Positions 1,443 to 51,948 of a stretch of 51,948 nucleotides of DNA are shown here, piece by piece. Origin of the DNA: an uncultured Candidatus Saccharibacteria bacterium (GTDB lineage: Bacteria; Patescibacteriota; Minisyncoccia; Phycocordibacterales; Phycocordibacteraceae); assembly GCA_964634595.1 (NCBI GenBank), contig CAZWKU010000003.1, positions 1 to 51,948 of the forward strand, in the 5' to 3' direction. How positions within the stretch are numbered: the first letter of the stretch is position 1; each line of letters starts with the position of its first letter. The notes beneath the pieces are model-generated. The model searched no databases, was not told the DNA's origin, and saw only the letters and a list, made by a program, of their open reading frames with translations. The translations under genes and the position numbers were made by a program.

Positions 1443-2596
1443 AACGCATACTCATTTTCTCTCTCGCATACTATCCGCATGTCGGCGGCGCTGAAGTCGC
1501 ACTCAAAGAGCTGACTGACCGCATGCCAGACATCGAGTGGCACATGCTCACGATGCAGTTTGGAGGGAGCCCGCACGTGGAGCGGGTAGGGAATGTCCAT
1601 GTCTACCGAATCGGTCCGCCAGCTGGCGGAGGCGGTTCGTACCTTTCAAAAATACTTTTCATACTGCGCGCCGCGAAAGCGGCGCGCGCCCTGCACCGTA
1701 CGCACCCTTTTGACGCCCTGTGGGCAATGATGACCTACATGATTTTTCCTGTTGTATTTGCAAATCTACGCATCCCTTACATCCTATCGCTTCAAGACGG
1801 CGATCCGTTTGAGCGGGTATTTCGACGCTGGTACATCCTCCCATTCTTACCACTCTTGCGAAGAGGGTTCCGTAAGGCCTCCGCAGTCACTGCGCTCTCG
1901 ACGTATCTTGCGGCATGGGCAAAAAAAATGGGATATCAAGGCGCAGTAGCCATAATACCCAATGGTGCTGATCTTGCGCGTTTTACTCCGCACGCTAATT
2001 CTATAGAGACTAGTGGCGTAGTAAACCTTGTCACCTCATCTCGTCTAGTGCACAAGAACGCGCTTGACGATGTAATTCGTGCTCTCGTGCTTCTCCCGAA
2101 AAATATTCATTTCATAATATACGGTTCAGGCAAAGAGGAGCAATCACTCAAAGAGTTGGCGCGAACCTTGAAAGTTTCTGAAAGGGTCTTGTTCAGGGGT
2201 TATGTCCCTCATGCTGAGTTAGCGCGCGCATTTGCCACGGCACACATTTTCATTCGCCCATCGCGTACTGAAGGATTTGGGGCCTCTTTTGTCGAGGCGA
2301 TGGCGGCGGGGCTCCCGGTCATCGCAACTCAAGAGGGAGGCGTTGCTGATTTTTTGTTCGACGAAAAACGAAACCCTGATAAACCCACAACAGGGTGGGC
2401 AGTCGACCCCGATGCGCCAGAGCAAATCGCGGATGCTGTAAAAGACATCATGACTAACCCAGACAAAGTCGCTCGCGTGAGAGACAGCGCTCTGGCGCTC
2501 GTACGCGAAAAGTACGATTGGGACATTATTGCGAAGCAAATGCACGCTCAATTTGAGGCCGTATTTACTCACGCGCACAACACCTTGACAAAGTAG
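1439..2596 (+). CDS. Glycosyltransferase family 4 (GT-B)
   Basis: YYPHVGGAE N-terminus; IPNGADL; FIRPSRTEGFGASFVEAMAAGLPVIAT. Confidence 0.92.
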   Translation: MKRILIFSLAYYPHVGGAEVALKELTDRMPDIEWHMLTMQFGGSPHVERVGNVHVYRIGPPAGGGGSYLSKILFILRAAKAARALHRTHPFDALWAMMTYMIFPVVFANLRIPYILSLQDGDPFERVFRRWYILPFLPLLRRGFRKASAVTALSTYLAAWAKKMGYQGAVAIIPNGADLARFTPHANSIETSGVVNLVTSSRLVHKNALDDVIRALVLLPKNIHFIIYGSGKEEQSLKELARTLKVSERVLFRGYVPHAELARAFATAHIFIRPSRTEGFGASFVEAMAAGLPVIATQEGGVADFLFDEKRNPDKPTTGWAVDPDAPEQIADAVKDIMTNPDKVARVRDSALALVREKYDWDIIAKQMHAQFEAVFTHAHNTLTK

Positions 2597-2613
2597 CCCA
2601 TAGGGTGTATACT
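2585..2613 (+). promoter_or_regulatory. Sigma70-type promoter for the orphan gene at 2772
   Basis: TTGACA (2585-2590), 17-bp spacer, TATACT (2608-2613). Confidence 0.8.
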
Positions 2614-2619
2614 ATATTA

Positions 2620-2771
2620 TAGTTCTTTGATAGCGTTACTGACTTCGCCACAGGATAGAGACGCTGATTATTTCGGCCTCTGTGCCCTGTGGTGAAAACC
2701 GCGGGTACGCAGAGCCTGCCTCGCACATTGGGTGTGGGGGTGGTACAGCGTACGCACACTAGGAGTGTGTG
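2620..2771 (+). promoter_or_regulatory. ~150-nt structured 5' leader (candidate cis-regulatory RNA)
   Basis: Hairpin A 2644-2696; mutually exclusive GAAA-capped hairpin B 2678-2714; GU-rich hairpin 2716-2743; hairpin 2753-2771 enclosing the AGGAG RBS. Confidence 0.55.
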
Positions 2772-3452
2772 ATGAAAAATGCAACTTACGACCAGATTAA
2801 GGACCTTGCCGTTCGCGTCTTAAACCTCAACAAGGGCAAACTCGACGGCGCGGCGTACGATCGCGGTACCCAGGGATTCTCGAACGAGGACGTCGCAAAC
2901 CGACTCATTGCATTCGTGAACAACGGCCTTTCTTTCATCATGAAAGGTCCGAGCGCGCTCATTATCGACCGCACCAGGTCTTTCAATCCGGTCACATTTT
3001 TCGGTAACGACTGGACGATATGGCGCGGGGCGAAAGAGAGCGATGGTCTTACGGGCGAAGAGGCTCAAGATGCCACCTCTCTCGCGCTCGCCGAGATCGA
3101 CTTTGCCAAGGCACTCTTCACAGTGTGCCTCAAAGAGGGCGAGACGACTATCACGGGCGAGGAGAAGCTTGTGCGGCATATCGCGGCGAAACACGTCCGC
3201 CTCGACGCAAGAGTTGGACAGTGTCTCTTTGAAGAAAAAGGTCAAGCGACCCTGGAATGGCTCTACCAGAACTTCGGCATAACCTGGTTCGAATTGCCTG
3301 GTACTGTTCTCCGCAACTCGGACGGCGATCGGTGCTTCCTCTATCTCTTTCGCAGCGGCGATGGTCGTTGGGGCTGGGACTGCTGCTGGCTCGACTATGT
3401 TCGGCGCGCCGGGGGCCTGTCTGCGGTTCTCGCAAGTAGCACTCAACCCTAA
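2772..3452 (+). CDS. Putative DGR variable (target) protein with CLec-like C-terminus
   Basis: AGGAG RBS at 2761-2765. C-terminus GTVLRNSDGDRCFLYLFRSGDGRWGWDCCWLDYVRRAGGLSAVLAS resembles CPR DGR target C-termini as I recall them. A-depleted NNY codons at 3312-3416. Confidence 0.7.
   Translation: MKNATYDQIKDLAVRVLNLNKGKLDGAAYDRGTQGFSNEDVANRLIAFVNNGLSFIMKGPSALIIDRTRSFNPVTFFGNDWTIWRGAKESDGLTGEEAQDATSLALAEIDFAKALFTVCLKEGETTITGEEKLVRHIAAKHVRLDARVGQCLFEEKGQATLEWLYQNFGITWFELPGTVLRNSDGDRCFLYLFRSGDGRWGWDCCWLDYVRRAGGLSAVLASSTQP
3312..3452 (+). other. Putative DGR variable region (VR)
   Basis: 28 of 35 codons in 3312-3416 end in C or T and none ends in A; only 10 A in 105 nt; invariant-looking TGG codons interleaved with GAC/TGC/GGC/TAT. 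Confidence 0.65.
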
Positions 3453-3494
3453 AACACTGTGCCCTAGTCCTTCCGACTTTTGCACTTTGCTCTC

Positions 3495-3519
3495 GGGCTC
3501 CGCATTTTCTGCGGAGCCC
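3495..3519 (+). terminator. Perfect 10-bp GC-rich hairpin: intrinsic terminator and/or DGR homing hairpin
   Basis: GGGCTCCGCA-TTTTC-TGCGGAGCCC followed by ATTTCTTTTAT, 42 nt after the stop codon. Confidence 0.7.
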
Positions 3520-3561
3520 ATTTCTTTTATACTGTCATTGGTAGTAGGCGAATCTGTTTAC

Positions 3562-3580
3562 AGCAAGGTTTAACCTTGCT
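3562..3580. repeat. 19-bp palindrome
   Basis: AGCAAGGTT-T-AACCTTGCT. Confidence 0.8.
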
Positions 3581-3701
3581 ACGAATACGAAACTAGGGAT
3601 GGTAAGCCAGAGGTTGTAACTTCATACACCGGTCTTTTGATGCAGGGGAATGCTCGCGAACTGCGGGCGATTCTTCTGCACAAGTGCGGTACTATCAAAC
3701 A

Positions 3702-5756
3702 ATGAAAGTTGTGATTGCGACTCCTCTCTACCCGCCCGAGATTGGCGGGCCTGCGACGTATACGGCGGTGCTAGAGCGAGAACTGCCAAAGCAAGGCGTT
3801 GAGGTAGAGGTGGTGAAGTTTGCTGATGCACGCCGCATGCCAAAGGTGATACGGCATCTTGCGTACTATCGCCTACTTTTAAAACGCGCAAAGAGTGCTG
3901 ATGTTATTTTTGCTCTTGACCCTGTCTCGGTGGGCCTGCCTGCCTATTGGGTAGCCAAAAAGCTCAAAAAGCCTTTAGTAGTAAAAGTGGTGGGCGATTA
4001 TGCGTGGGAGCAGGGGGTACAGCGCTTTGGTATTACCGCGTCGCTTGATGCGTTTGTGCGGGAGAGGCGCGCGCCCGTGGCGGTGCGGGTGTTGCGCGCG
4101 ATACAGACCCGCGTCGCGCGAAGCGCGACGCGCATTATTGTCCCCTCAGAGTACTTGCGCCACATTGTGAGCGCATGGGGCACGGTGGCTAACAAGGCAG
4201 GCACTGCACGACAAAAGATCGATGTGATATATAACGCAGTCCCGACGGAGCCTCCAGCACCTCTCACGACGGTGTTTGCGGACATGCCTCGCCCACGTAT
4301 CGTCTCGGTCGGTCGCCTCGTACCCTGGAAGGGTTTTGAAGGTCTTATCGATGCAGTGGCTGATCTTCGTGAAAAGGGTATACGCGCTTCGCTTGCCATT
4401 ATTGGTGATGGCCCCGATCGTGAGGCACTCAAGGGCTACCTGCGAGAGAGGCTGGGGATACATGGAGCTTGTTTGGCCGGATCTCTCTCACGTAGCGAGG
4501 TGCTTGCGGCTATAAAAAATGCAGACGTCTTCGCACTTAATTCTTCATACGAGGGCCTGTCACATGTACTTATTGAGGCGCTCGCACTTGGGGTACCTAT
4601 TGTTGCGACTCGTGCAGGCGGTAACAGTGAACTTATACAAGACGGAGTGAATGGGTTGCTGGTCCCCGTGGGTGACCCTGAAAGCCTTGCAGATGCTTTG
4701 AGCCGCGTCCTCACTGACAAGGCACTCTCGGCTAAACTTTCATTGGGAGCAAAACTATCGGCCCGGCGATTTGAGGAGCGCTCTATGATAGCGGCAACGA
4801 CCAAACTACTCACTGAAGTCGTTGCTGAGCAAAAGGCGCGGCGAGTGCTCATGATCAGTGGAGACTCAAAACTGCTAGTTGCGGGTACCGAGGCGGCAAA
4901 GCGTCTTGCGCTTCAGCGGGGTGCTGTTGAGCGTCTTGATGTCTTTGTGTGGCCACACACACATTCGTTTTTCGCAATACTACGCGCGGTACGCACTCAT
5001 GAGTACGACGTCATTACCGCGCAAGACCCTTTTTTGCGCGGCTTGCTTGCCTACGTTTTAACGCGTTTCTCTAAGGCCCGTTTCAATGTGCAGGTACATA
5101 CCGATCTTTCAGCGCAACCTTACTGGCGACACATTCTTGCTCATTTCTTACTACGTCGTGCTGATTCTATACGCGTGGTTACCGAGAAGGTTCGTGTACA
5201 GGTTGCACAGCATACTACGGCAACGCACATAACCGTGCTCCCGATTTTTACTGACATCTCACGCTTTACGCAGATAAAGCATCGCCCGCAGAAGTCTAAA
5301 AAGACCATTATGTGGATCGGTCGTTTCGAGGCTGAAAAAGATCCCCACAAAGCGCTTGCAGTCTTGCGCGAGGTGCGAGGTGCAGGAGTTGATGCTGTGC
5401 TGGTCATGCTCGGTGCCGGCTCCCTTGAACATTCGCTTGCACAAGCGGCGGCAGGGCTCCCGGTTGAGTTCCCCGGATGGGGAGACCCAGTTCAACATCT
5501 TGCCAAGGCAGACGTTGTCATAAGTACCTCAATGCATGAGAGCTATGGCGCGAGCATTATTGAAGCTCTTGCGGCAGGTGTGCCGGTGGTCTCTCTTGAC
5601 TATGGTATTGCACGCGAGGCAGGGGCGATCATCGCGTCAAAAACAGAGCTTGGCGCGCGCGTCATCGAAGTGCTTAAAACAAAAACGCGCGGCGAATTAA
5701 AACTCAAGGTACTCACCAAAGAGGAGTGGGTCGAGGTATGGCTCAAGTCACTATGA
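3702..5756 (+). CDS. Fusion of two GT4 glycosyltransferases
   Basis: MKVVIATPLYPPEIGGPATY...NSSYEGLSHVLIEALALGVP, then a second GT-B starting RRVLMISGD...SMHESYGASIIEALAAGVP; start moved to ATG 3702. Confidence 0.88.
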   Translation: MKVVIATPLYPPEIGGPATYTAVLERELPKQGVEVEVVKFADARRMPKVIRHLAYYRLLLKRAKSADVIFALDPVSVGLPAYWVAKKLKKPLVVKVVGDYAWEQGVQRFGITASLDAFVRERRAPVAVRVLRAIQTRVARSATRIIVPSEYLRHIVSAWGTVANKAGTARQKIDVIYNAVPTEPPAPLTTVFADMPRPRIVSVGRLVPWKGFEGLIDAVADLREKGIRASLAIIGDGPDREALKGYLRERLGIHGACLAGSLSRSEVLAAIKNADVFALNSSYEGLSHVLIEALALGVPIVATRAGGNSELIQDGVNGLLVPVGDPESLADALSRVLTDKALSAKLSLGAKLSARRFEERSMIAATTKLLTEVVAEQKARRVLMISGDSKLLVAGTEAAKRLALQRGAVERLDVFVWPHTHSFFAILRAVRTHEYDVITAQDPFLRGLLAYVLTRFSKARFNVQVHTDLSAQPYWRHILAHFLLRRADSIRVVTEKVRVQVAQHTTATHITVLPIFTDISRFTQIKHRPQKSKKTIMWIGRFEAEKDPHKALAVLREVRGAGVDAVLVMLGAGSLEHSLAQAAAGLPVEFPGWGDPVQHLAKADVVISTSMHESYGASIIEALAAGVPVVSLDYGIAREAGAIIASKTELGARVIEVLKTKTRGELKLKVLTKEEWVEVWLKSL

Positions 5757-48559: not shown

Positions 48560-51076
48560 ATGGCCTCCTTTTTGGCCCGCTTATTTTCAAAAAACGCATC
48601 CGCCTCTTTTGTTGCACAGGCTGGCTCTTTTGTTGCACAGGTAGGTGGCTTCGCCGCCGAGCTTGAAAGCCTATCTCAGGTAGCGCTGAAAGAGCGGGCC
48701 GTTACTATTCGTACTCGTTCGGGCGGTGCAGTGCCTGAGGCTGATATACCACTCGTTTTTGCCTTAGTGCGTGAGGCCGCGCGCCGCACTCTTAAAGAGC
48801 GCCACTACGATGTGCAGCTTATAGGCGGCCTCGCGCTTGCACGGGGGCGGGTTGCCGAGATGCGCACAGGAGAGGGCAAGACATTGGTTGCCACGTTGCC
48901 TGCGACTCTGCACGCCCTCTCGGGGAAGGGGGTACATGTGGTGACGGTTAACGATTATCTTGCGCGCCGCGATGGCGCGTGGATGGGGCAGGTGTATGAC
49001 GCCCTTGGCCTTTCGGTCGGGGTTGTTACGTCAACCGGGGCATACCTTTATGACCCCGCTCACGTTGCGCAAGAAGAGGACGCGGCGCGTGACGTGCTCG
49101 GGTCGTTTAAAGTTTTTTATGATTACTTGCGCCCGGTGGGAAAACGCGATGCGTATGCCGCTGATATAACCTATGTCACTAACAATGAGCTCGGTTTTGA
49201 TTATCTGCGAGACAACACTGCCTATGACCCTGCACAACTGGTTCAGCGCGGGCACCATTATGCGATTGTTGACGAGGTTGACTCTATCTTAATTGATGAA
49301 GCACGCACGCCGCTTATCATTTCAGGCCCTGCGGGTGATTCAGAGAAACTGTACGAACGCTTTGCGGGCATTGTGGCATCATTTATCACAACCGAAGATT
49401 ACACCGTTGATGAGAAACAGCGTGCGATACAAATAACCGATGCCGGGATGAAAAAGGCTGAAGTAGCCCTCGGCATGGAAAATCTGTATACCGAGGGTGG
49501 GGCTAAATATGCTCATCATCTTGAGACTGCCGTGAAGGCACAGGCGCTTTTTCATAAGGACAAAGAGTATGTTGTAAAAGACGGAGAGATAGTCATCGTC
49601 GATGAGTTTACTGGCCGTATGCAGCCAGGGCGCCGCTGGTCTGAAGGCCTGCACCAAGCTATTGAGGCAAAAGAGGGCGTAGTGGTAAAACAGGAGACGC
49701 GCACTTACGCCAGCGTGACTTTTCAGAATCTCTTTCGCATGTACGAACGTCTCGCGGGCATGACCGGCACGGGCCTCTCGTCTGAAGAAGAGTTTTTTAG
49801 CGTCTATGGTCTTGAGGTTATTTCGATACCGACACATCGACCTGTTGCCCGTATAGACAACAACGACCTCATCTTTCAGAGCGCGCAAGGCAAGTATCGC
49901 GCGCTTGCGCGTGAGGTGCGGCAACTCCACACCAAGGGTCAGCCAGTGCTTGTCGGCACGGTTTCTATCGAAGACAATGAGATCGTAAGCGAATACCTCA
50001 CCCAAGAGGGGGTGCCTCATGAGGTATTGAACGCAAAAAATCACGAGCGCGAAGGTGAGATCATTGCGCAGGCAGGGCGGCGGGGGCGCGTTACGGTTGC
50101 GACCAATCTCGCGGGTCGCGGAGTGGACATTAAGCTTGGGGGCGCACCGGCTGAGCCGGGTGAGCGCGAAGCAGTAGTTCAGGCAGGCGGTCTTGTAGTT
50201 ATTGGGACCGAGCGGCATGACGCGCGCCGCATTGATGATCAGCTGCGCGGGCGCTCTGGCCGACAGGGTGACCCTGGTCGCACACAATTCTATATATCAC
50301 TTGAAGATAAGCTCATGCGTGTCTTTGCCTCTGAAACTTTGAAAAAAGTCATGGGCACCTTCAAAATACCTGAAGATGAGCCCATCATAAGCTCGATGAT
50401 CACCAAGTCGATAGAGACAGCGCAAAAGCGCATTGAGGGCTTCAACTTCGATTCGCGCAAACAGGTGCTTGCCTACGACGACGTGATAAATACGCAACGT
50501 TTAGCAATTTATGCGCGGCGTCGCTCTGCGCTTTTTGGGTCGCCTGAAGAAGTCGAGGCAGTTATTCTCGATTGTATCGGAGGCGACAAGGGCGCACGTA
50601 CTGCCTATGAGGCCAAGCGAGTCGAAATCGGGGTAGAGCAAACCATCGCCCTATTACGCCGCATTCTCCTCCAGGTTATTGATGCGCTCTGGCTTGAGCA
50701 CCTTGAGACGATGGATTACCTACGGCGTTCGGTGTCGCTTCGCGCGTACGGCCAACGTGACCCGTTGATAGAGTATCGGCGCGAGGGGCTTTCGCGCTAT
50801 CGGGCTCTTGAGGCCGCTATTGTGCACTTAGTGCGTGAAGCACTCCCGCGTCTTGCGCCTGTCGATGATGCGCGCATTCGTGCCGAAGAGGCACGCGTGC
50901 GAGCACAGCTCGTTGCCGCAGGGAAAGAAGAGAGTGCCACCCAAGCCCCTATCACCAAGGGCGCAACCTTCGGGAGGAATGACCTAGTAACGATTAAAAA
51001 GGGCGACCAGTCCCAGACACTCAAATATAAAAGAGCCGAGCCATTGCTTGTGCAGGGCTGGGAGATCGTTTCGTAA
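48560..51076 (+). CDS. secA: Protein translocase subunit SecA
   Basis: EMRTGEGKTL; HVVTVNDYLARRD; FDYLRDN; DEVDSILIDEARTPLIISG; GMTGT; ATNLAGRGVDIKLGG; QLRGRSGRQGDPG. Confidence 0.98.
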   Translation: MASFLARLFSKNASASFVAQAGSFVAQVGGFAAELESLSQVALKERAVTIRTRSGGAVPEADIPLVFALVREAARRTLKERHYDVQLIGGLALARGRVAEMRTGEGKTLVATLPATLHALSGKGVHVVTVNDYLARRDGAWMGQVYDALGLSVGVVTSTGAYLYDPAHVAQEEDAARDVLGSFKVFYDYLRPVGKRDAYAADITYVTNNELGFDYLRDNTAYDPAQLVQRGHHYAIVDEVDSILIDEARTPLIISGPAGDSEKLYERFAGIVASFITTEDYTVDEKQRAIQITDAGMKKAEVALGMENLYTEGGAKYAHHLETAVKAQALFHKDKEYVVKDGEIVIVDEFTGRMQPGRRWSEGLHQAIEAKEGVVVKQETRTYASVTFQNLFRMYERLAGMTGTGLSSEEEFFSVYGLEVISIPTHRPVARIDNNDLIFQSAQGKYRALAREVRQLHTKGQPVLVGTVSIEDNEIVSEYLTQEGVPHEVLNAKNHEREGEIIAQAGRRGRVTVATNLAGRGVDIKLGGAPAEPGEREAVVQAGGLVVIGTERHDARRIDDQLRGRSGRQGDPGRTQFYISLEDKLMRVFASETLKKVMGTFKIPEDEPIISSMITKSIETAQKRIEGFNFDSRKQVLAYDDVINTQRLAIYARRRSALFGSPEEVEAVILDCIGGDKGARTAYEAKRVEIGVEQTIALLRRILLQVIDALWLEHLETMDYLRRSVSLRAYGQRDPLIEYRREGLSRYRALEAAIVHLVREALPRLAPVDDARIRAEEARVRAQLVAAGKEESATQAPITKGATFGRNDLVTIKKGDQSQTLKYKRAEPLLVQGWEIVS
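48604..48641 (+). repeat. In-frame 21-bp-period tandem duplication in the secA 5' end
   Basis: CTCTTTTGTTGCACAGG at 48604-48620 and 48625-48641 (ASFVAQA/GSFVAQV). Confidence 0.85.
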
Positions 51077-51088
51077 GACGCATCTGCC

Positions 51089-51163
51089 AAACAGGACAGT
51101 AAGAAGTAAACAGAAAACAGTAGACAGTATGCAAGAGAGAGAAAACAGCAAACAGAAAACGGT
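51089..51163 (+). repeat. Heptamer array, consensus ARACAGW
   Basis: aagaagt aaacaga aaacagt agacagt [atgcaag agagaga] aaacagc aaacaga aaacggt, in 7-nt phase from 51101. Confidence 0.85.
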
Positions 51164-51509
51164 GGGGAGGAGTGCTTTTTATGATCTGCTCGTTTGGCAA
51201 AAGGCTATGACGTTCACAAAAGAGATATATGTAATCACTAAACACTTGCCGAGCCACGAACAATTTGGTCTTATGAGTCAGTTGCAAAGAGCGGCAGTCT
51301 CTATACCGTCCAACATCGCCGAGGGGTCTAAACGTGGAAAAAAAGAATTTGTTCAGTTTCTTCGTATCGCGAATGCATCTGCTGCAGAGTGCGAAACACA
51401 ACTATTATTAGTTCGCGACATTTATGCAGTCGACATTTCGAAGACTCTCAATATTCTTTTAGAAGTTGAGCGAATGCTCGAATCGTTCATACGAAAAATC
51501 AGGCTGTAG
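51129..51509 (+). CDS. Four-helix-bundle protein (23S rRNA intervening-sequence protein family)
   Basis: DLLVWQKAM; EQFGLMSQLQRAAVSIPSNIAEG; EFVQFLRIANASAAECETQL. Confidence 0.92.
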   Translation: MQERENSKQKTVGRSAFYDLLVWQKAMTFTKEIYVITKHLPSHEQFGLMSQLQRAAVSIPSNIAEGSKRGKKEFVQFLRIANASAAECETQLLLVRDIYAVDISKTLNILLEVERMLESFIRKIRL

Positions 51510-51544
51510 ACTGTTTACTGTTTACTGTGTACTGTTAGCTGTTA
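51503..51544 (+). repeat. Heptamer array, reverse complement of the upstream array
   Basis: gctgtag actgttt actgttt actgtgt actgtta gctgtta. Confidence 0.9.
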
Positions 51545-51545
51545 T

Positions 51546-51948
51546 ATGGCATTTGTGGATGAGGTAAAGATACACGCGAAGGCGGGCAAAGGCGGCGATG
51601 GTGTCGTCCGCTGGCTCCGTACCAAAGAGACTGCGCGCGGTGGCCCCTCTGGGGGTGATGGTGGCCGTGGGGGCGACGTGCTCTTGCTTGGCGTGCGTGA
51701 CTACGCGGCGCTCGCGAATTATCGCTACGAGAAAAAATTTAAATCAAAAGATGGTGAGGCCGGGCGTAACTTTCTTGAACACGGTGCAAACGGCGACCCA
51801 GTCATTCTCAAAGTTCCCGTGGGTACGACTGTGCGCATTGTAGAGACTGGGGCAGAGATAGAGATTTCTAAAGAGGATGAGCCAGTACTACTTTTTAGGG
51901 GGGGTAATGGGGGCAAGGGCAATGCTCGGTTTAAGGGGGCTACCAATC
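51546..51948 (+). CDS. obgE: GTPase ObgE/CgtA, 5' part (runs off the window)
   Basis: MAFVDEVKIHAKAGKGGDG...GGPSGGDGGRGGDV...LKVPVGT...GGNGGKGNARFKGATN. Confidence 0.95.
   Translation, partial: MAFVDEVKIHAKAGKGGDGVVRWLRTKETARGGPSGGDGGRGGDVLLLGVRDYAALANYRYEKKFKSKDGEAGRNFLEHGANGDPVILKVPVGTTVRIVETGAEIEISKEDEPVLLFRGGNGGKGNARFKGATN

Follow-up and report, generated by a model that had tools for sequence, protein, structure and literature searches.

A four-helix-bundle gene bracketed by complementary heptamer arrays at a secA-obg junction of Patescibacteria: a probable cassette of the 23S rRNA intervening-sequence type

Organization of the secA-obg junction

The DNA analysed here is a stretch of 51,948 nt (the window), positions 1 to 51,948 of the forward strand of contig CAZWKU010000003.1 in assembly GCA_964634595.1, from an uncultured Candidatus Saccharibacteria bacterium that GTDB places in the Patescibacteriota (Minisyncoccia; Phycocordibacterales; Phycocordibacteraceae). 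Towards its end a small gene for a four-helix-bundle protein lies between secA and obg, both essential genes, bracketed by two arrays of tandem 7-nt units, the downstream units being the reverse complement of the upstream ones. The protein belongs to the family encoded in the intervening sequences (IVSs) of 23S rRNA genes, and we read the whole element (51077-51544), with moderate confidence, as an IVS-type hitchhiking cassette of about 0.45 kb in the mRNA of a protein-coding operon: a PF05635 gene bracketed by inverted arrays of 7-nt (sometimes 8-nt) units, the arms of which form a closing stem. The features of the locus are as follows.

48560-51076, + strand: secA, the upstream host gene (Pfam SecA_DEAD, SecA_PP_bind, P-loop_SecA and SecA_SW), with its stop codon TAA at 51074-51076.
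51077-51544, + strand: the whole inserted cassette, 468 nt, recognized from the empty sites 'TAA t ATG' of relatives and from its contrast in G+C (GC) content with the flanks.
51094-51135, + strand: 5' heptamer array, distal block (GGACAGT AAGAAGT AAACAGA AAACAGT AGACAGT ATGCAAG), the main 5' arm of the predicted stem; it holds the ATG at 51129 and pairs with 51503-51544 in the minimum free energy (MFE) and centroid folds.
51143-51163, + strand: 5' heptamer array, proximal block (AAACAGC AAACAGA AAACGGT), within the N-terminal extension of the open reading frame (ORF); pairing could also take place in a register that uses this block, which is the counterpart of the array in the related locus L081.
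51129-51509, + strand: the four-helix-bundle gene, 126 amino acids (aa), of the 23S rRNA IVS protein family (PF05635, TIGR02436), with an alternative GTG start at 51162.
51503-51544, + strand: 3' heptamer array (GCTGTAG ACTGTTT ACTGTTT ACTGTGT ACTGTTA GCTGTTA), the reverse complement of the 5' units; the TAG stop lies within it, and a single nucleotide separates its end from the obg ATG.
51078-51132, + strand: 5' strand of the predicted closing stem (RNAduplex; MFE and centroid folds of 51060-51565).
51499-51558, + strand: 3' strand of the predicted closing stem (RNAduplex and folds), including the obg start codon at 51546-51548, which would be sequestered at the stem base.
51546-51948, + strand: obg (obgE/cgtA), the downstream host gene, of which the N-terminal 134 codons are present before it runs off the window (PF01018, E 7.6e-39; NCBIfam Obg models).

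A spacer of 17 nt separates the secA TAA from the first 5' heptamer, and ten heptamers then run in phase from 51094 to 51163, the two blocks being joined by a unit AGAGAGA read from the sequence. ACAG cores at 51096, 51110, 51117, 51124, 51145 and 51152 share one common phase, and one of the units begins with the A of the ATG at 51129. That the upstream heptamers pass in phase through this ATG had been proposed in a preliminary description of the locus, and both reading of the sequence and Tandem Repeats Finder bear it out. Its account of the other side, six reverse-complement heptamers that contain the TAG and end 1 nt before the obg ATG, agrees with our reading as well: the six units fill 51503-51544, the TAG (51507-51509) lies in the first of them, and a single T precedes the ATG at 51546.

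With Tandem Repeats Finder, two period-7 arrays come out, one of 7.6 copies (51108-51160) and one of 3.9 copies (51510-51536), and no further multi-copy heptamer array anywhere in the 52-kb window. The three-unit pattern ACTGTNNACTGTNNACTGT, allowing up to 2 mismatches, has five matches in the window, all at the small gene, where 0.10 are expected. The arms are complementary in several registers, as had been suggested – 38 nt at 76%, 32 nt at 81%, and 21 nt at 86% – with up to 41 nt and 71-81% overall.

The cassette has no clear promoter or terminator of its own. A terminator was not found within it; the + strand has a single promoter-like match, a weak one (51430-51457, 9 of 12), with the total for the region not clearly above chance; there is no Shine-Dalgarno sequence before obg; and an Rfam search of 50900-51700 returned no match at E <= 1. 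The earlier report of missing signals therefore stands, save for that one weak match.

The GC content of the cassette is 0.416, compared with 0.547 for secA and 0.556 for obg. For this and the orthologous cassettes treated below (L081, L083 and L101) the values are 0.42-0.47, against 0.49-0.60 for the flanking genes, despite saturated synonymous sites; the low GC could be a compositional constraint or the outcome of repeated replacement.

The encoded protein

The product of the small gene matches PF05635, "23S rRNA-intervening sequence protein" (E 1.8e-33; 115.3 bits, cut-off 33.8), and TIGR02436, "four helix bundle protein" (E 5.7e-33; 113.4 bits, cut-off 24), in agreement with its earlier assignment to the IVS protein family. 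The nearest solved structures are PDB 2GSC (E 3.6e-15) and 2RLD, with five chains deposited for each, and Xcc0516, the protein of structure 2GSC, is described as a homopentamer (PMC4990558). Profiles of the Avd type match only weakly (PF22296, E 0.0045; NF033474, E 8e-5; phrog_3206, E 1e-5), and the scores fall short of the Avd family, with 22.9 bits against a cut-off of 80 for NF033474 and 17.9 against 40 for PF22296. Searches of Pfam, NCBIfam and PHROGs matched this 126-aa helical protein to PF05635 and Avd-type profiles only, and to no enzyme family; PADLOC found no defence-system match, the PHROGs match was the weak Avd one, and tblastn found no further copy of the gene in the window. The likeliest roles of the protein are binding of its own repeat RNA or stem, or autoregulation.

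A strong Shine-Dalgarno-like sequence, GGGGAGGAG, is present at 51163-51171 inside the N-terminal extension of the ORF, and the only suitably spaced ATG (51181) is out of frame. Because of this, the start of the small gene, ATG 51129 or GTG 51162, is uncertain.

Insertion between secA and obg

A metagenome scan with the N-terminus of Obg gave 80 related loci, the relatives being from groundwater and sediment, and the gap between the two genes was counted wherever the contig includes the secA end. The gap is exactly 1 nt in 19 relatives, mostly in the form 'TAA t ATG gcatttgt...', 2-7 nt in 10, and 34-149 nt in 13, and 14 carry larger inserts. The window reads 'TAA [468 nt] t ATG gcatttgtgg', and since relatives show 'TAA t ATG' empty sites, the cassette is placed exactly between the ancestral secA stop and obg start. 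The window element is thus an insertion into a Patescibacteria (Paceibacteria-like) operon in which secA and obg ancestrally abutted. No target-site duplication is visible by comparison with the 'TAA t ATG' sites, but the insertion is old.

Seven other relatives have the homologous cassette at secA|obg. The nearest protein homologues (65-77% identity) occupy the same junction. The gene order murB-x-secA-4HB-obg-gatB (4HB being the four-helix-bundle gene) is found in L081 and L083, homologous cassettes in L082 and L171-L174 are flanked by the secA tail and/or obg, and the 57% identical homologue of L101 is also at secA|obg. The junction cassettes of L081/L082, L083 and L171-L174 have arms of the ACAG/CTGT type. 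In a neighbour-joining tree of SecA plus Obg, L081 and L083 group together and the window is on a separate deep branch, the deep branches being unresolved. The preliminary description had regarded stable synteny across the lineage as a finding that would speak against its reading; the gene is syntenic only in part of the lineage and is absent from 29 relatives.

The secA|obg junction is a permissive insertion hotspot, because unrelated inserts also occupy it in relatives (L084-L163). The identities of these other junction ORFs were judged by eye from translations and not by profile search. RAYT/IS200-like genes with palindromes like repetitive extragenic palindromes (REP) are present in L100 and L159, and a reverse-strand YerC/TrpR-like gene of 136-153 aa lies between ccatatatgg palindromes in L090, L117, L137, L138, L142 and L155; further inserts are a toxin-antitoxin-like pair (L102), a Fic-like gene (L134) and a membrane protein (L144). 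At the junction of L086 (2096-2500) a 64-aa ORF resembles, by eye, a truncated four-helix-bundle protein of a second subfamily, flanked by its own heptamer arrays of the ACGAAAT / ATTTCGT type. Gene-less spacers of inverted units of the AATTTTC type are seen in L147 (697-845), and L133 (2462-2500) has units of the GTCTTAT type; these may be solo arms, or else remnants, resembling miniature inverted-repeat transposable elements, of cassettes from which the gene was lost.

A -10-like box, TAGGGT or TAGTGT, 6-13 nt before the obg ATG is common to relatives with a spacer of 34-60 nt or a larger insert (for example L116, L125, L146, L138 and L086), which suggests a leaderless or near-leaderless obg transcript once obg is uncoupled from secA.

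Conservation of the orthologous cassettes

Among the orthologous ORFs the proportion of synonymous differences (pS) is 0.73-0.96, which is saturated, while that of nonsynonymous differences (pN) is 0.11-0.32; the ratio of the corresponding rates (dN/dS) is approximately 0.04 in the one measurable orthologue pair. The protein is therefore under strong purifying selection outside rRNA. The repeat cores have been kept as well, with ACAG-type units before and CTGT-type units after every orthologue, and the 3' array is identical over 35 nt between L081 and L083. Both arms have changed together in L101, to GCAG upstream and CTGC downstream over several units, a compensatory change. The cassette has persisted until synonymous sites were saturated, the protein and the repeat cores staying conserved.

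In L171-L174 (approximately 660-715) and L081 (3990-4026) the SecA frame enters the 5' array and takes an array-encoded stop, giving tails like ...IIENSEQ before it, and the GTG start of the small gene overlaps the SecA tail in another frame.

Paired arrays throughout the PF05635 family

A homologue alignment was used to scan one genome per species, yielding 80 loci (41-60% identity) from Bacteroidota, Acidobacteriota, Patescibacteria, Firmicutes, Planctomycetota, Proteobacteria, Nitrospirota and others. Nearly all have tandem short units upstream of the gene and their reverse complement downstream, the units being specific to the locus (for example TAGTGGT/ACTAACC, TTAGAAG/TCTAACA and AGGGTTT/AACCCTA). 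Among 81 loci, a period of 7 is the best lag upstream in 52 and downstream in 54, and a period of 8 in a further 13 and 15, respectively. A strong period-7 segment is found on at least one side in 48 of 81 loci, compared with 0.9% of 529 control windows from the same loci, an enrichment of about 60-fold; arrays are thus present around other family members, the absence of which the preliminary description had named as a reason to doubt its reading. The 91 arrays comprise 75 with a period of 7, 15 of 8, 1 of 6 and none of 9, with a median of 4.3 copies.

The two arrays of a locus belong together. Consensus units are reverse-complementary within 1 mismatch in 18 of the 19 loci that have two strong arrays, and in 76% of loci the two arms complement each other better than the 95th percentile of mismatched pairings, in which an upstream arm is combined with the downstream arm of a different locus; the corresponding comparison of arm duplex energies gives p = 2e-14. 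Locus-specific, mutually complementary arrays of 7- or 8-nt units are therefore a universal signature of PF05635 cassettes.

The arrays have further properties in common. A stop codon reading into the cassette is present in 69% of them (approximately 36% expected), 50 of 90 stop all three frames, and the 5' arms, read in the orientation of the gene, are rich in purines and poor in C. For loci with both neighbours co-oriented, the median distance is 3 nt from the upstream stop to the start of the 5' arm and 8 nt from the end of the 3' arm to the downstream start; about 70% of neighbours are co-oriented on each side, ORF-based neighbour calls being too crude for this proportion to count as evidence. 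Other cassettes of Patescibacteria lie between two transketolase subunit genes, at gap|rpiB, and between ruvX and a tRNA-binding gene, and in the transketolase and gap|rpiB cassettes, where the DNA is readable, 0-2 nt lie between the 3' array and the following ATG. Cyanobacterial plasmid copies of the gene also have arrays.

Several variants of the arrangement were seen. Octamer arrays flank the PF05635 gene in L009, L022, L057, L058 and L070 (for example AGGTATCA, GAGACGGA and CTAACCAT). Two or three four-helix-bundle genes, each with its own unit, occur a few kb apart on a single Bacteroidota contig in L003 (a 6-kb locus) and L053 (3001-3345 and 4705-5046), and the flanking sequences of Bacteroidota loci suggest that there may be more recurrent sites. 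L166, on plasmid pCC7120alpha of Nostoc PCC 7120, has only a 3' array (1880-1935; CTTCTGC/CCTCTGC units), and its 5' side adjoins a transposase gene and lacks an array, so that this cassette may be disrupted.

Comparison with rRNA intervening sequences and other repeat systems

An IVS within rRNA with the same anatomy was found by tblastn of plasmids, as an unannotated match (L164) on the Azospirillum lipoferum 4B chromid NC_016586.1. Its ORF lies inside a complete 23S rRNA gene (Rfam large-subunit rRNA, 2319-5517), just after the conserved GCGTAATAGCTCACTGG segment, and is bracketed by 5' units CAGAGGA CGGATGA CAGAGGA CGGAGGA CAGAAAG and 3' units TATCCGT CCTCTGT CTTCTGT CATCCGT CTTCTGA, which form arms of 32 contiguous pairs. 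It is like the window cassette in having a PF05635-like ORF, complementary heptamer arrays, and an ATG embedded in the 5' array; it differs in its location inside an rRNA gene, in its unrelated unit, and in that its arms are perfect whereas those of the window are 76-81% complementary. None of the first 163 loci, searched for conserved 23S rRNA motifs, is inside rRNA.

The IVS of Coxiella burnetii has a 28-bp terminal stem and, just before the S23p start, two or three tandem copies of GACAGAT plus GACAGAA, the copy number varying by strain; RNase III cleavage has been mapped in the stem at the first repeat, and the S23p ORF is apparently untranslated and decaying while the RNA element is retained (PMC4990558; Warrier et al. 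2016). The window cassette shares with it the protein family, an ORF within terminal inverted repeats and a similar size (428 nt for Coxiella, 468 nt here), and the Coxiella heptamers resemble the window units AGACAGT and AAACAGA. There are also clear differences. The Coxiella element is in helix 45 of 23S rRNA whereas that of the window is between two protein-coding genes; RNase III cleavage is demonstrated for the former and predicted for the latter; and the Coxiella ORF is decaying, in contrast to the strong purifying selection on the window ORF and its orthologues. The window cassette thus has the PF05635/TIGR02436 protein, the long enclosing inverted-repeat stem and the heptamers at the ORF start that mark an IVS, and lies between secA and obg, not inside a 23S rRNA gene at helix 25 or 45. 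With the exact empty sites of relatives, and the array, ORF and inverted array shared with L164 and Coxiella, the label of an IVS-like cassette given in the preliminary description is upheld.

Other known systems fit less well. Avd (bAvd, PDB 4DWL), the accessory protein of diversity-generating retroelements (DGRs), shares the four-helix-bundle fold superfamily with the window protein, but assignment to it was rejected: the scores are far under the cut-offs, no reverse transcriptase is adjacent, and the immediate neighbours are secA and obg. Repeats of the template/variable type are absent from 50950-51650, the direct repeats there being short and imperfect (10-33 nt, 73-90% identical), and to our knowledge flanking heptamer arrays are not a feature of DGRs. 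A CRISPR-like array, a terminator or attenuator, and a promoter cluster were also considered and rejected on unit lengths, the paired inverted geometry and missing signals.

Heptameric repeats are reported to be over-represented in many bacterial genomes (PMC4692102, PMC4679880). Intergenic TAACTGA arrays are described in Beggiatoaceae, cyanobacteria and Bacteroidetes (PMC4679880), and GGGAATC arrays in Xanthomonas, which has 70-75 inverted array pairs, and GGGGATT arrays in Nostoc (PMC4692102). Like those of the window, these are tandem 7-nt intergenic units, and the commonest end point of the TAACTGA arrays, 1 nt ahead of a start codon, is also that of the window 3' array. In contrast, they use one unit genome-wide without a link to PF05635 genes, whereas each cassette has its private unit, and four-helix-bundle or IVS genes are mentioned in neither PMC4679880 nor PMC4692102. 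The window unit, occurring within the 52 kb only at the small gene, does not behave as a genome-wide heptamer simple sequence repeat family (TAACTGA, GGGAATC, STRR).

A predicted closing stem and its alternatives

RNAduplex pairs the arms 51078-51132 and 51499-51558 at -54 kcal/mol (z about -7.5 relative to shuffles), and in the MFE fold and the centroid fold of 51060-51565 alike the closing helix is made up of the arrays. The sense duplex of the window is stronger than the antisense one (-54 compared with -44 kcal/mol), a single case. If the cassette is an IVS-type element, it would be co-transcribed within the secA-obg mRNA, where the arrays would make a long stem, imperfect and with about 45 pairs, that loops out the ORF. 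Such a stem would set the end of secA beside the start of obg, the latter itself being sequestered at the stem base; by analogy with 23S rRNA IVSs, it would be the functional core of the element, restoring the continuity of the host RNA and making the insertion tolerable, and it is a likely substrate of RNase III, so that processing of the cassette out of the mRNA may be envisaged by the same analogy. Because tandem short units can pair in many registers, the stem would be robust to slippage, gain or loss of a unit leaving it intact. Units of 7 or 8 nt, which are not multiples of 3, together with the stop-rich content of the units, would terminate ribosomes of every reading frame no later than inside the 5' arm.

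Several observations weigh against this picture. Mismatches in the arms show no wobble bias (50 of the G:T type and 47 of the A:C type), and sense and antisense duplex energies are equal across 81 loci, so that complementarity could be kept at the DNA level and not by selection on RNA; conversion or template switching between inverted repeats, or a DNA-level function, may be responsible. Folded as a whole, the cassette improves only modestly on shuffled sequences (z = -2.2). The RNase III signature motif is absent from the six-frame translation of the 52-kb window, which is uninformative as the genome is incomplete. The obg start has no Shine-Dalgarno sequence and lies 36 nt past the stop codon of the cassette gene, and how it is translated calls for explanation, be it by re-initiation across the stem, from an mRNA left nearly leaderless by processing, or through 70S scanning. 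Finally, the neighbour-joining tree does not distinguish a single ancient insertion that was later lost in places from a cassette that spread by way of recombination in the conserved flanks. Of the proposal in the preliminary description, a cassette that is processed out of an essential mRNA or structures it, the IVS-type insertion is thus retained, while the signals expected of selection on RNA pairing did not appear.

The same strand symmetry and lack of G:U bias are what would be expected if the arrays were DNA-level terminal inverted repeats of a transposon-like element, perhaps recognized by the pentamer with a host or trans-encoded enzyme, RNA pairing being incidental. The arms are the very termini of the insertion, abutting the flanking stop and start codons; the element is polymorphic for presence and absence, with different cassettes at the same junction; its GC differs from the flanks; and other mobile elements (RAYT/REP) use the site. 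We nevertheless consider this explanation unlikely, as there is no transposase, recombinase or nuclease in or beside the cassette, the 126-aa protein matches no enzyme family in Pfam, NCBIfam, PHROGs or PADLOC, and the empty sites reveal no target-site duplication. A shared recognition protein would not explain a private unit for each cassette even within one contig (L003, L053), and a 5' arm rich in purines and poor in C indicates a constraint that acts on one strand. Nucleic-acid binding is established for Avd relatives in DGRs, and by this precedent the arrays might instead be mainly binding sites for the encoded pentamer, with each subunit taking about one unit, either of the stem or of single-stranded RNA, through which it would regulate itself or obg without processing. 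A unit length held to 7-8 nt, a median of about 4.3 copies near the five chains of 2GSC and 2RLD, the overlap of the arrays with the start and stop of the small gene and the start of obg, and the strong purifying selection on the protein all favour this putative binding. It too has a low probability in our estimation, since the units are very diverse while the conserved surface motifs SIPSNIAEG and AAE.ETQ are nearly invariant, and since the Coxiella ORF decays while its RNA element is retained (PMC4990558).

The reported over-representation of heptamers in many bacterial genomes (PMC4692102, PMC4679880), and the variation in copy number among Coxiella strains (PMC4990558), would also suit functionless arrays that arose as neutral by-products of polymerase slippage beside an ordinary small gene. 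This is very improbable given the roughly 60-fold enrichment over controls, the paired and locus-specific reverse complements, the ACAG/CTGT cores conserved despite saturated synonymous sites, the compensatory GCAG/CTGC of L101, and the near absence of multiples of 3 among the periods. An IVS-type cassette with arms that close a stem remains the reading we prefer.

Significance of the cassettes

Intervening sequences of 23S rRNA have been on record since around 1990. Where they come from, how they move and what their conserved ORF does are still described as unclear or unknown (PMC4990558). The IVS protein family, the inverted termini and the heptamers are already known, and so are heptamer arrays as such. 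We found no account in the literature, beyond the Coxiella heptamer note, that makes paired arrays of heptamers or octamers a general trait of PF05635 genes or that places IVS-type cassettes at operon junctions; most subscription journals are outside the coverage, and an earlier description is possible.

The same type of element lives at stop-start junctions of housekeeping operons in Patescibacteria, at secA|obg, between two transketolase subunit genes, and at gap|rpiB. The paired-array signature provides a simple way to search for all such elements, and the filled and empty secA|obg sites are natural alleles for experiments. The cassettes also suggest a concrete connection, open to testing, with the so far unexplained abundance of heptamer repeats among bacteria.

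A broader proposal, which we put forward as speculative and doubt at present, is that PF05635 pentamers and tandem 7/8-nt arrays constitute a general bacterial two-part module, in which inverted arrays silence an insertion in any host RNA, the protein binds the units and mediates spread, and orphan arrays are non-autonomous relatives. If so, the arrays would zip the flanks together, resulting in a helix extension in rRNA or, in operons, in a stop-to-start juxtaposition with a termination-reinitiation shunt; the cassettes might spread, for example, with a DGR-type reverse transcriptase; and the non-autonomous relatives would be the orphan heptamer arrays that abound in cyanobacteria, Xanthomonas and Beggiatoaceae.

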